Positions 53,936-58,901 are shown, counted from the first letter of the stretch. The stretch: DNA of 64,000 bases from a virus (IMGVR_UViG_3300043344_000002:1-64000), one strand, 5' to 3'. Notes: generated by a model not told the origin, from the letters alone. Translations and numbers: made by a program.

Positions 53936-53995
53936 GGACGAAACCCACGGCCGTGAGGTAGCGGGTCCGCCGGTGAAGCCGGTGCTGATGAGTCC
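53936..53995 (+). ncRNA. type II hammerhead ribozyme HH1
   Basis: GGAC-GAA-ACCC...GGGT-C^-CGCCGG TGAAG CCGGTG-CTGATGA-GTCC; predicted cut after 53967. Confidence 0.92.
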
Positions 53996-54012
53996 GATAT
54001 GAGGAGAGTGCG

Positions 54013-54129
54013 ATGCTCCACAAGAACGTGATGAAGATGTCTGGCGGCAAGGAAGACGCGGGCACGGCCGACGCGCGCAAGGAGCTGGAGAAGGAGATCG
54101 AGAAGCTCGAGAAGCAGCAGGGCCAGTAG
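54013..54129 (+). CDS. 38-aa peptide between HH1 and HH2 (not in ORF track)
   Basis: RBS GAGGAGAG; MLHKNVMKMSGGKEDAGTADARKELEKEIEKLEKQQGQ*. Confidence 0.65.
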   Translation: MLHKNVMKMSGGKEDAGTADARKELEKEIEKLEKQQGQ

Positions 54130-54190
54130 GACGAAACGCGCACGCTGGGAAGCGTCCGCGTCCACGGGTAGGGCCCGTGCTGACGAGTCC
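54129..54190 (+). ncRNA. type II hammerhead ribozyme HH2
   Basis: GGAC-GAA-ACGCG..ACGCT GGGA AGCGT..CGCGT-C^-CACGGG TAGGG CCCGTG-CTGACGA-GTCC; cut after 54162. Confidence 0.93.
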
Positions 54191-54202
54191 AGAGGGAGAA
54201 GC

Positions 54203-54388
54203 ATGAAAGAGGCAATTCGTCACCTGCTCGCGGCAGCGATGGAGCTGTCGCCGACGGGAACCGAGCAGGCCGCATTCAGCGCGATCGCCAATCAGGATCG
54301 CCGCCCGGATGACGTCATCGTGATGGATCTCGCAAGCGGGATTCTCACGGGCGTCTCGCACGGCGCCTGGCCGAAGGTGGGCGACTGA
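54203..54388 (+). CDS. ~60-aa helical repeat-domain protein, copy 1
   Basis: LL.AA..L.P...E.A.F......L...I..GVS.G.WP. Confidence 0.65.
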   Translation: MKEAIRHLLAAAMELSPTGTEQAAFSAIANQDRRPDDVIVMDLASGILTGVSHGAWPKVGD

Positions 54389-54810
54389 TGAATGAAGCAG
54401 TACGACTACTACTCGACGCCGCGATGTATGTCGCACCAACGAGTGTCGAGCAGGCGGGGTTCAGCGATCTCGTCAACCGAATGCGGGGTGGCGGCTGCTC
54501 GCAGGACTCCATCGTCATCGAGTTGACGAGTGCCATCTTCGCGGGAGTCTCGCGCGGTGCTTGGCCCACGAGAGACGATAAGTCGATGCCGAAGGAGTCG
54601 GCACTCGAGGTGCTACACATGGCGGCGACGCTGGCCCCCGACGAGACCGCCCGTGCGGGTTTCACCGAGATCATGCGCAAGATGGAGCAGGACAAGAAGT
54701 CCTACGCTGACATCTCGCTCATGCTCATCACGACGGTGAGTGACGGCCTGCGCACAGGCAACTGGCCGAGGGTGGAGGCGAAGGGCAATGGTCGACCAAC
54801 CCGCGCCTAA
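54388..54810 (+). CDS. ~60-aa helical repeat-domain protein, copies 2 and 3
   Basis: Two internal copies ending GVSRGAWP and GLRTGNWP. Confidence 0.7.
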   Translation: MNEAVRLLLDAAMYVAPTSVEQAGFSDLVNRMRGGGCSQDSIVIELTSAIFAGVSRGAWPTRDDKSMPKESALEVLHMAATLAPDETARAGFTEIMRKMEQDKKSYADISLMLITTVSDGLRTGNWPRVEAKGNGRPTRA

Positions 54811-55021
54811 GGAAGCGCCGCGTGTCGCAACGAACCTACTCCTGCGCGCAGCGCTGCTACTCGCACCCGACCAGGCATCGCGCGACTACCTCACGGGTAT
54901 TGTCACGGCCGGTAGGAAGCTCGCCAAGAAGGTGTCTGAGGCCGATGAGGAGAGCATCATTCGGTCTCTCGTCGTTGCACTGGACCAGGGAGTTACGCAT
55001 GGAGCGTGGCAGCGAGACTGA
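54788..55021 (+). CDS. ~60-aa helical repeat-domain protein, copy 4
   Basis: LLLRAALLLAPD...GVTHGAW. Confidence 0.6.
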   Translation: MVDQPAPKEAPRVATNLLLRAALLLAPDQASRDYLTGIVTAGRKLAKKVSEADEESIIRSLVVALDQGVTHGAWQRD

Positions 55022-55175
55022 GCTTAGCTTGACGTTGGCGACTGAACTTAGGGAAGTCGCCGGACACATCAAAGCTAACAGCGTTGCGTGGGGTCGCGTT
55101 ACGTCGCAAGAAGCTGAGCACATCGACTGGGAAGCTGCACTCTTGCGTTCTTGGCACAAGAGAGGCATAGCATAG
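54999..55175 (+). CDS. small hypothetical protein ending on HH3
   Basis: RBS AGGGAG; its TAG overlaps the first G of HH3. Confidence 0.5.
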   Translation: MERGSETELSLTLATELREVAGHIKANSVAWGRVTSQEAEHIDWEAALLRSWHKRGIA

Positions 55176-55231
55176 GACGAAACCCCGTCGGGAGACGGTG
55201 GTCCGTGGTTCTTGACCACGCTGACGAGTCC
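55175..55231 (+). ncRNA. type II hammerhead ribozyme HH3
   Basis: GGAC-GAA-ACC CCGTC GGGA GACGG T GGT-C^-CGTGGT TCTTG ACCACG-CTGACGA-GTCC; cut after 55203. Confidence 0.93.
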
Positions 55232-55287
55232 AGTGAGGGACACACACACATGACTATCATACATTATCACTTATGTCGGGAGATGCG

Positions 55288-55626
55288 ATGAGTGAACGCA
55301 CAGTGATGCAACTTGCCGCGCTGCTCACATCCGCGGCAAACCGAGGAAGTCACAACTTTCTCTTGCCTCAAGAACTCTCCGCACTGCGTGAGGCTGCCGA
55401 CCTGCTCACGCGAATGGCCGAGCTGACGGCGAGCGCTAACCGTGCTCGTCTCACGTCGGCACGGATGTCGAGTCGCGACCAGTTGCTCCTCTGGACCGGC
55501 GACGACAGCATGCGACAGAACGTCGCTGCGTACGCCGAGCAGACCGTCTGTAGTCTTCACTCGGACGTCGAGCGGGGGTCCGAACAGTTCTACTCCTTGG
55601 TGTTGGCGGAGGCACTTAGAAGGTGA
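55288..55626 (+). CDS. hypothetical protein
   Basis: RBS GGGAG. Confidence 0.55.
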   Translation: MSERTVMQLAALLTSAANRGSHNFLLPQELSALREAADLLTRMAELTASANRARLTSARMSSRDQLLLWTGDDSMRQNVAAYAEQTVCSLHSDVERGSEQFYSLVLAEALRR

Positions 55627-55691
55627 CTGGCGTCGTTGTACACGATCACGCTAGCCTGATACTGTAGTCTTACCAACACAGCAGCATGTGA

Positions 55692-56988: not shown

Positions 56989-57134
56989 CGAGAGCAGTTT
57001 TCGCTCTCGCTACGCTCCTCGCGTTGACCGCCTGCGATCGCCCGCAGCAGACCCCAGAGCACCCACCGACGGTCCGGCTTGACACGAACTGTCGACCTAC
57101 TGGTTGCATTGTTCACAGATTCTAGAGGAGTATC

Positions 57135-57362
57135 ATGTTCACGTTTCGTTATGGTGTCGCGTTCCGCAAGGACACCGACCCGGCGTTCGAGACGCACGTG
57201 TCGATCGATCACCCGGCAAATCCGGCCGAGATCAACGATCACGCCGACGTGATCGCTGATTACGCACGCGCGTACGTCGCCGCGAACTACCCGGAAGTTG
57301 AGCTTGACGGGTACTCGCCATATTGCATCATGCACAACAAGACGACGATCAAGAAGTTCTGA
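57135..57362 (+). CDS. small acidic protein, paralogue family
   Basis: RBS GAGGAG; Y.V.F..D.D..F...V.ID.P..P.EI.D pattern. Confidence 0.65.
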   Translation: MFTFRYGVAFRKDTDPAFETHVSIDHPANPAEINDHADVIADYARAYVAANYPEVELDGYSPYCIMHNKTTIKKF

Positions 57363-57374
57363 GGGAATAGCGCG

Positions 57375-57599
57375 ATGAACATTCCGCCGTACACGCTCAC
57401 GTTCGAGAACGACTACGACAGCATCTTCACTCTGGTGATGAAGGTTGATTTACCGAAGATGCCGTGGGAGATCGACGATAAGTACGATGCGCTCACTGAG
57501 CACGCGTACGATCGCGCCGCTGATACGTCCGTGGTACTGGGTGACTACACGCTTAGGTCAATCTCCTATGGTGGGATGGAGATCGCCTCGTTTGATTAG
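57375..57599 (+). CDS. small acidic protein, paralogue family
   Basis: YTLTF..D.D..F.....VD.P..P.EIDD pattern. Confidence 0.65.
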   Translation: MNIPPYTLTFENDYDSIFTLVMKVDLPKMPWEIDDKYDALTEHAYDRAADTSVVLGDYTLRSISYGGMEIASFD

Positions 57600-57680
57600 C
57601 ATGATCAAGTAGTTTACATTGATCACGTTATCCTAGTACTGTAATCCTAGCACGCTGAACCACCCGGAACCTAGGAGAGC

Positions 57681-57929
57681 ATGATGGCTGACTACATCGT
57701 TCACTTCAAGCACGACGAGAGCAGTGATGTTAAGATGCAGGTGCGGGTGCCGTACGATGTTGACCCCGCCGTCGCGGCCGATGACTACGAGATCATCGTG
57801 GAGCTGGCATACGGCATCATGCGTGAAAAGTCGACAGCCATCGACATCAACGTCCTCGGTCTCGAAGTGCGTGACTTCGACGCGATCAAGATCATGCACA
57901 ACGACGACTTGATTATGGACTTCGCGTAA
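57681..57929 (+). CDS. small acidic protein, paralogue family
   Basis: Own promoter and RBS; Y.VHF.HD pattern. Confidence 0.65.
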   Translation: MMADYIVHFKHDESSDVKMQVRVPYDVDPAVAADDYEIIVELAYGIMREKSTAIDINVLGLEVRDFDAIKIMHNDDLIMDFA

Positions 57930-58141
57930 GCACAACAACGGGAGTAAGTTAATGGTTCTCGCACAGGTGATGTTCGAGTTCGGTGGCGAGCAGAAGGGTG
58001 GCATTATTATCTTGCTGCTTGTCGGTCTGCTGCTCTTCGTTTTGCTGGGAAAGAAGCGGTGATGGGAGGGTCGTTGCACTCCACTATTTAGTGCGGTAGA
58101 GTATTCATACCGACCCGAACACAGGAACACAGGAGAGCACG

Positions 58142-58435
58142 ATGAGTGACTTCGAGTACTCGTACACGCTGATCTTTCGGCACGACAACCACCCCAGCGT
58201 CAAGATCACGATCGACGTCGAGTCGGATGACAGTCCCGAGTACCTGCGTGAGCACCCGCTCGCTCTCGATCTGCTGGAGGCGGCGGACGACTTCATCGAA
58301 AGTGCCGAACTGAGCATGTACGACTACACGCTCGTTGCGGTCATGCGGGACAGTGAAACGGTGCTTCGTTACGATGATGGATCTGTGGACTTGACGAACA
58401 CGGTTAAGAACGATGAGGACCGCGACAATCGCTAA
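58142..58435 (+). CDS. small acidic protein, paralogue family
   Basis: RBS AGGAGAGCACGATG; YTLIF.HD pattern. Confidence 0.65.
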   Translation: MSDFEYSYTLIFRHDNHPSVKITIDVESDDSPEYLREHPLALDLLEAADDFIESAELSMYDYTLVAVMRDSETVLRYDDGSVDLTNTVKNDEDRDNR

Positions 58436-58517
58436 GCGTGATTGCCTATTTGCATTGATCACGCTTCTTGGTACTGTAGTCTTAACACGCTGAACCACCG
58501 AATTCTAGGAGAGCATC

Positions 58518-58796
58518 GTGAACGACATTCGTCCCCGCACTCCGATCAACACGCTCACGATCCCCACCTTCGAGCACTTCATTCTTGAGTCCGACGGGAC
58601 GGAAGACGCGTTTCGTATCTTCGCCGCAGACGGCTTCACACTTCTGGGAATGGTGGAGCGGCTCCCGAAGTACCGTGGCAAGATCTCTCGTCAGTGGAAT
58701 GTGAGTGGGTTTTCCAAGTACGGTACGTTCGTCTTCAACTTCGAGCAGGTCGAGCAGATCGTCAACAAGTGGCTTGCTGACAATCGAGTCCTGTGA
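58518..58796 (+). CDS. small hypothetical protein
   Basis: Own promoter and RBS. Confidence 0.6.
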   Translation: MNDIRPRTPINTLTIPTFEHFILESDGTEDAFRIFAADGFTLLGMVERLPKYRGKISRQWNVSGFSKYGTFVFNFEQVEQIVNKWLADNRVL

Positions 58797-58848
58797 GACG
58801 TCTGTCCTCGCTGGACAACTGACACGTGGTATGATACCCGTAATCACA

Positions 58849-58901
58849 GGTCGAAACGCCTGGGAAGGCGTCGCCGGGAAAGAGACCGGCCCGAAGAGAC
58901 C
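58849..58901 (+). ncRNA. type II hammerhead ribozyme HH5, core variant CCGAAGA
   Basis: GGTC-GAA-ACGCCT GGGA AGGCGT-C^-GCCGG GAAAGAGA CCGGC-CCGAAGA-GACC; cut after 58872. Confidence 0.75.

Follow-up and report, generated by a model that had tools for sequence, protein, structure and literature searches.

The 64,000-nt stretch IMGVR_UViG_3300043344_000002:1-64000 (hereafter the window) comprises bases 1-64000 of the 93,054-bp genome of an uncultured actinobacterial phage. Five hammerhead elements (HH1-HH5) lie on its + strand between positions 53936 and 58901, and three more (HH6-HH8) lie further along the genome, outside the window. As their presence, fold, covariation, conservation and placement indicate, the elements are genuine type II hammerhead ribozymes under selection. 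Cleavage is predicted from their sequence, together with its possible effects on mRNA stability and translation, and we consider it likely that they cut the early polycistronic RNA co-transcriptionally, so as to provide each downstream gene with a 5'-OH leader that opens with a hairpin.

Type II hammerheads and their subfamily

Both strands of the full genome were scanned with a custom type II descriptor covering the core and the stems, which returned seven canonical copies and the HH5 variant, all eight on the + strand. Within the window, HH1 (53936-53995), HH2 (54129-54190), HH3 (55175-55231) and HH4 (56192-56253) are canonical, HH1 having the core elements CUGAUGA, GAAA and GUC and HH3 a GGGA tetraloop on stem III, while the HH5 variant occupies 58849-58901. 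The canonical copies outside the window are HH6 (genome 66294-66343; L239:2294-2343), HH7 (genome 67173-67222; L239:3173-3222) and HH8 (genome 68458-68507; L239:4458-4507). The original prediction, made from the window sequence, of five elements at these positions on the + strand was confirmed, and its cut sites were reproduced: cleavage is predicted after 53967, 54162, 55203 and 56225 in HH1 to HH4, which would release units of 195, 1041 and 1022 nt between them, and putatively after 58872 in HH5. The first base of each of HH2, HH3 and HH4 is, as it had noted, the G of the preceding TAG stop codon.

The topology of the elements is that of type II hammerheads, the 5' and 3' ends lying in stem II and stems I and III being closed hairpins. 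The hammerhead core (C3 U4 G5 A6 N7 G8 A9, G12 A13 A14, A15.1-U16.1, H17) is exact in seven of the eight copies. A CUGAnGA core had been claimed for all five window elements; it is present in HH1-4 but not in HH5, which reads CCGAAGA (U4 to C) and has a 5-bp stem I with an 8-nt loop. A C4 core is rare: 2.07 Mb of viral loci contain a single instance, versus 229 canonical copies, and judged by its sequence HH5 is probably slow or inactive. Stem II is GGAC/GUCC throughout HH1-4, in agreement with the original prediction, and also in HH7; it is GGUC/GACC in HH5, GGCC/GGCC in HH6 and GUCC/GGAC in HH8.

A search for the core without its stems (CGAAAC...GTC...CTGANGAG) gave four matches in the window, namely HH1-4, where 0.04 were expected. 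Genome-wide, this core pattern was observed seven times (0.08 expected) and the full descriptor likewise seven times (0.01 expected), both expectations being derived from the same 100 dinucleotide-preserving shuffles of the genome; the reversed genome, used as a control, contained no match to either. A covariance model built from the eight copies and run on the genome with filters off matched only those eight, at 48.8-71.8 bits (HH5 48.8), the next best match scoring 12 bits, and so revealed no further degenerate hammerhead copies in the genome.

The three-way junction is both the minimum-free-energy and the centroid structure of every copy (8/8). That stems I and III covary, staying paired while their sequence varies, was borne out by pair counts over the eight copies, which were indexed by distance from the core and are hence alignment-free: 47 of 48 cells are paired at stem I positions 1-6, with 2-4 pair types per position, and 38 of 40 at stem III positions 1-5. 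Compensatory changes in stem II (A-U, U-A, C-G) occur in HH5, HH6 and HH8, and the G10.1-C11.1 pair closing this stem is G-C in all eight copies. For comparison with other viruses, viral contig loci were fetched by a pattern fixing only the core and stem II, which leaves stems I and III outside the ascertainment. The eight-copy model gave 162 matches on 99 such loci, five of them the window's own copies. Among 138 distinct members from ~100 viral contigs, 98.1% of cells are paired versus 72.4% in shuffles, and the covariation score is 0.607 versus 0.129 in shuffles and ~0.05 in slid controls, figures to be read with the caveat that the 138-member alignment was itself fitted to the covariance model.

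Comparison with the Rfam type II model (RF02276), suggested earlier as a check, gave three matches at E-value thresholds: HH1, HH2 and HH6 were matched at 27, 24.9 and 24.5 bits, all below the gathering score of 37, and the other copies were not matched. A scan at the gathering score reported no hammerhead in consequence; taking this miss as evidence against the motifs was considered and rejected, since the model rests on a pseudoknot subtype. The elements share with RF02276 the catalytic core, the circular permutation with an open stem II and the association with phages, but the model calls for a stem II of 2 bp and for loop I to be paired with a 3' tail, whereas the copies described here have a 4-bp stem II and no such tail. 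The further traits of this subfamily are a 6-7-bp stem I closed by a U.G pair round a 3-nt loop (U-NNN-G; the U.G pair closes loop I in 101 of the 138 members), a stem III loop that is usually GNRA, and an A directly 5' of stem II, conserved in 88% of 292 phage copies. To cleave fast at physiological Mg2+, hammerheads depend on a tertiary contact between elements of stems I and II; this subfamily has the conserved A and the U.G pair in place of the pseudoknot. The 4-bp-stem-II subtype is abundant in IMG/VR contigs, being present in at least 120 of them (loci L002-L121; e.g. L002, L013, L027 and L048). At least 150 subfamily members were found in viral contigs, and the arrays reach 10 copies among the viral contig matches listed.

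Orthologous copies in related phages

No DNA match to the region was found by megablast or blastn among 50,697 cultured phages. The nearest cultured phages, as judged by the helicase, are actinophages with ~36-41% amino acid identity, and in the five nearest of these hammerhead pattern matches occurred at chance level only. Two hammerhead-adjacent proteins had no relatives in single-protein searches of viral contigs, and a profile search of viral contigs yielded 28 distant homologue loci, none of them with hammerheads. Relatives were found via homologues of the 215-aa protein encoded after HH8, in three metagenome loci (L282-L284) from 94-95-kb phages, where this marker protein is 55-63% identical at the amino acid level. 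The comparison of orthologues in these loci covers HH6, HH7 and HH8.

The HH8 orthologues are 100% nucleotide-identical in these loci. Those of HH7 are 96-98% identical and display a G-C / G.U / A-U series at one stem I pair, and in those of HH6 stem I has been wholly replaced with its pairing kept. Overall, the orthologues of HH6-8 have 76-100% nucleotide identity, whereas the flanking genes are only 56-84% identical and the spacers 3-40%. The one exception is the spacer upstream of HH6 (81.5% identity to L284), which represents the leftover 3' end of a gene that this phage has lost by deletion. Since the ribozymes are better conserved than the genes and spacers around them and carry compensatory changes, there is strong evidence for selection on the RNA fold.

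The locus L284 also differs from this phage in cassette content. A promoter-led cassette is replaced there by a longer stretch with the same promoter, followed by a hammerhead-led gene; where this phage has only a promoter-led small gene and the 3' remnant of a gene, one more hammerhead-led gene and the decayed remains of another hammerhead are found in L284. The decayed copy (L284:6896-6945) retains stem II, GAAAC and the stem III hairpin but has lost stem I and has the core CUAACGA, which testifies to ribozyme turnover. Immediately 5' of its HH6 orthologue, the same locus encodes a 27-aa peptide rich in Cys and Gly (L284:7455-7536), which this phage lacks.

Placement in the early-gene block and proposed function

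All eight hammerheads are intergenic and in sense orientation within a + strand block of ~85 small open reading frames (ORFs), which extends over 42.4-72.4 kb in a codon-usage gene map. The distance from the 3' end of the ribozyme to the following start codon is 11-28 nt in all eight (counted to a mini-ORF in the case of HH3). This placement is general among phage hammerheads, with a Shine-Dalgarno (SD)-like motif no more than 22 nt downstream in 73% of 291 copies versus 29% of random positions, and a median distance of 24 nt from hammerhead to start codon in these 291 copies. The overlap with the upstream stop codon is opportunistic: UAG is the triplet ending on the first stem II base in 26% of 292 phage copies, which matches the expectation from the conserved A-G and a free first base.

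The elements are thus positioned, as the original prediction held, to cut the early polycistronic RNA at gene boundaries, and we hypothesize the following course of events. The polymerase would read through from the repeated early promoters, and each ribozyme would fold and cut after C17. The 3' end of the upstream mRNA would then be the stem III hairpin, 30-40 nt past the stop codon and bearing a 2',3'-cyclic phosphate, and the downstream mRNA would open with a fully paired 5'-OH stem I hairpin, followed by CUGANGA-GUCC, the Shine-Dalgarno sequence and the start codon. The hairpin-capped 5'-OH mRNA proposed earlier is consistent with the modelled product, in which cleavage would put the stem I hairpin at the extreme 5'-OH end. 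In this way the ribozyme would serve as a promoter-independent maker of a defined 5' leader. The translation of each gene or short block may be insulated from the upstream RNA context, and the new ends may be poor substrates for 5'-monophosphate-dependent RNases and 3' exonucleases. The predicted accessibility of the ribosome binding site (RBS) in the cleaved product equals or exceeds that in the precursor (300-nt context) in 8/8 cases, the mean rising from 0.38 to 0.55.

Several points weigh against co-transcriptional processing into hairpin-led messages. The shift in RBS accessibility is modest and purely thermodynamic, and the core change in HH5 is expected to impair catalysis. No copy attains the RF02276 gathering score (37 bits) or has the Rfam-type pseudoknot between loop I and a 3' tail, and a search by eye for pairing between loop I and the flanks gave nothing consistent. 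The native 4-bp stem II has a low equilibrium occupancy in several copies (0.001-0.58, in a 100-nt context), so that activity would depend on co-transcriptional folding. Finally, the stabilising and insulating effects are proposed by analogy, from general knowledge of the end-dependence of RNases E and J and of ribozyme insulators.

The genes that would receive such leaders are small. The sole gene of the 195-nt HH1-HH2 unit encodes 38 amino acids (54013-54129, + strand) and gave no family match, and its RBS begins 7 nt past HH1. The HH2-HH3 unit contains four small + strand ORFs (54203-54388, 54388-54810, 54788-55021 and 54999-55175). Four tandem paralogous domains of ~60 aa (31-50% identical, E 6e-18 to 2e-6), without a family match, extend over three adjoining ORFs at 54203-55021. 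Directly after HH3 lies a 13-codon mini-ORF (55250-55291) with its own GAGGGA site, the TGA of which overlaps the ATG of the downstream 112-aa gene (55288-55626, + strand) in the sequence ATGA; this arrangement suggests a possible coupled leader peptide. A 144-aa ORF (56267-56701, + strand) starts 13 nt past HH4, and a 52-aa ORF (58930-59088, + strand) is found downstream of the HH5 variant. The hammerhead-flanked proteins have no Pfam or PHROG family, with the sole exception of the product of the gene directly after HH7 (genome 67234-67653; L239:3234-3653), which has a C-terminal T7 gp5.9 RecBCD-inhibitor domain (PF25708, E 8.9e-11).

A repeated family of predicted early promoters (TTTACA, a 17-nt spacer with TG, and TAGATT or TACTGT) is interspersed among the hammerheads and would offer a second means of starting a message. 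Its members are located at 51304-51332, 51685-51713, 52164-52192, 52739-52767, 53609-53637, 55944-55972 and 63952-63980, with variants near 55637, 57612, 58075 and 58450, and each is followed, ~40 nt on, by a near-identical leader and start, AGGAGAGCACGATG, the RBS being conserved as well. The promoter at 53609-53637 (+ strand; TTTACA-N17-TAGATT with upstream TG), a consensus match only, would drive the HH1-HH3 transcript. Two are predicted on the + strand inside the HH3-HH4 unit, at ~55637-55675 (TACTGT-type -10) and 55944-55972 (TTTACA-N17-TAGATT). No excess of intrinsic terminators was found in the hammerhead and early-gene region. Directly after the primase-polymerase/D5 gene (42548-44917), positions 44938-44984 hold four perfect head-to-tail copies of the 12-nt sequence GGTTACAGCAGC.

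Alternative explanations and relation to known systems

The original prediction went beyond processing, in proposing that an excised unit could fold a chimeric hammerhead from its own two ends. Units between hammerheads sharing stem II would then undergo ligation, whether through the reverse reaction or through RtcB of the phage or host, giving circular or shuffled mRNAs; if true, such circular or trans-joined mRNAs would be a new class of prokaryotic coding circular RNA (circRNA), but we regard this outcome as very unlikely. Its structural logic holds for HH1-4, which have GGAC/GUCC in common: stems I and III are hairpins, each whole on one product, and therefore only stem II must match for a chimera. 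The equilibrium probability of the chimeric stem II predicted with ViennaRNA is 0.92, 0.27 and 0.11 for the 195-, 1041- and 1022-nt units, respectively, values that are weak guides because the native stem II reaches only 0.001-0.58 in the same model. The best case for a circle is the 195-nt HH1-HH2 unit encoding the 38-aa peptide, in which the chimeric stem II belongs to the minimum-free-energy fold. The idea that compatibility is a selected feature fared less well. About half of the within-array pairs have compatible stem IIs despite the diversity of stem II among phage type II hammerheads and the rarity of GGAC/GUCC in an unbiased sample, as circle formation would favour; however, over 27 arrays compatibility is 58% for adjacent versus 48% for non-adjacent pairs, and stems I or III, too, are often common to the members of an array, as would be the case for paralogues. 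In some arrays incompatible stem IIs alternate (L044), and HH5-8 have four mutually incompatible ones, as is also the case for the four orthologous copies in L284, which all differ. The 1022-nt unit, moreover, would not be a clean excision product, given the two predicted promoters inside it. An RtcB gene is indeed present in this phage (39288-40466, - strand, E 1e-115), in line with joining by this ligase, but the expected co-occurrence of arrays with rtcB was not seen: the gene is absent from all 50 other array-bearing viral records, 10 of which are at least 90% complete, and from all 48 control records. It lies 13.5 kb from the array in an opposite-strand block (36354-40466), 1.6 kb from DUF7873 (36932-37669, E 7e-78) and a tRNA gene (36354-36425), and this block looks like an RNA-repair or tRNA module, positionally unrelated to the ribozymes. 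A connection between RtcB and phage hammerhead arrays was not made in any paper that our literature search found. That spliced or circular products could arise from successive rounds of cleavage and ligation had already been proposed by Perreault et al. (2011, PLoS Comput Biol; PMC3088659), who sought such products without detecting any.

The other explanations concern the elements themselves rather than the fate of the excised units. Hammerheads could mark module boundaries at the DNA level, or be semi-selfish passengers of mobile small-gene cassettes, with cleavage incidental. Such a role would be in keeping with flanked genes that are ORFans without a family, one with the anti-defence gp5.9-like domain (PF25708, E 9e-11), with the gain and loss of hammerhead-led cassettes among relatives, including the decayed remnant in L284, with the paralogous appearance of array members, and with a sporadic distribution (0 in the 5 nearest cultured actinophages, 0 in the 28 distant homologue loci). 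We nevertheless think it unlikely, as the orthologous copies are far better kept than their surroundings and show compensatory changes, which speaks for selection acting, in the phage, on the RNA fold; the close and general coupling to a downstream RBS points to a role in expression; and the contiguous conserved DNA, at just 9-11 nt, is a weak substrate for homologous recombination. Equally low is the probability we assign to cleavage as a decay or timing device, which would destabilise chosen messages, perhaps tuned by ribosomes terminating on the overlapping stop codon, and so produce differential expression within a transcript. Terminating ribosomes would compete with folding in HH2-4, whose stem II includes part of the stop codon, core variants that are probably slow occur (HH5), and differing stabilities or translation efficiencies are listed as a possibility in reviews (PMC6765202). 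However, the stop overlap is not general, its frequency being about that expected from the conserved A-G, and both products would be hairpin-ended, which is usually protective of RNA. That the motifs are inactive relics or chance look-alikes is highly improbable: the unmet Rfam gathering score and the HH5 core change could be cited in its favour, but the motifs occur far above chance, the core is perfect in seven of eight copies, and the stems show covariation and orthologous conservation.

The array had been thought to be a novel arrangement, but clustered hammerheads flanking genes in prophages and phages, together with the spliced or circular product idea, were described in PMC3088659. Three tandem arrangements cleaved in vitro and one in vivo in that study, and single-gene mRNAs were proposed to arise from the processing of long phage transcripts. 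Later reviews restate the clustered phage hammerheads (de la Pena et al. 2017, PMC6155905; Weinberg et al. 2019, PMC6765202) and consider their function to be open, the 2019 review with regard to the hundreds of hammerheads in phages. The present array resembles those of PMC3088659 in having several intergenic hammerheads on one strand, type II included, that flank small, non-conserved phage genes, either singly or in short blocks, and in having an anti-defence gene among the flanked genes (ardA in Agrobacterium there, gp5.9-like here). Those clusters consist of two or three copies in prophages of Clostridium, Azorhizobium and Agrobacterium, whereas here eight + strand intergenic copies occur in a ~85-gene block of a ~93-kb uncultured actinophage without a close cultured relative, interleaved with a repeated early-promoter family.

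The tandem hammerheads of viroids, satellite RNAs and retrozymes (PMC7761336, PMC7229834) likewise generate 5'-OH and 2',3'-cyclic-phosphate ends, which are substrates for tRNA ligase or RtcB, and have unit ends able to rebuild a hammerhead. In those systems a non-coding or replicating unit is repeated identically, the ribozymes are of type I or III and circles are proven; the phage units, in contrast, are unrelated protein-coding cassettes that share only stem II, in 4-5 of the 8 copies. These unrelated gene units and the lack of RtcB in the other array-bearing records set the phage array apart from circRNA systems of that kind.

RiboJ is a synthetic ribozyme insulator, engineered from the type III hammerhead of sTRSV with an added hairpin. 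The likeness lies in a self-cleaving hammerhead just upstream of an RBS, which strips off variable upstream RNA and leaves a leader headed by a hairpin; unlike RiboJ, the phage elements are natural type II copies, used repeatedly in one transcript.

The arrangement is therefore of a kind known since 2011, not a new category, and the circle idea is an old one that is weakened by the RtcB and stem II comparisons. It is a clean example of its kind, with eight copies 11-28 nt before start codons, interleaved with promoters that also create 5' ends, and relatives keep the orthologous ribozymes far better than the surrounding genes. A populous 4-bp-stem-II subfamily escapes the Rfam type II model at its gathering score, and a dedicated model would be useful. 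The genome is a good substrate for asking whether phage ribozymes act as natural insulators or as protectors of mRNA ends.

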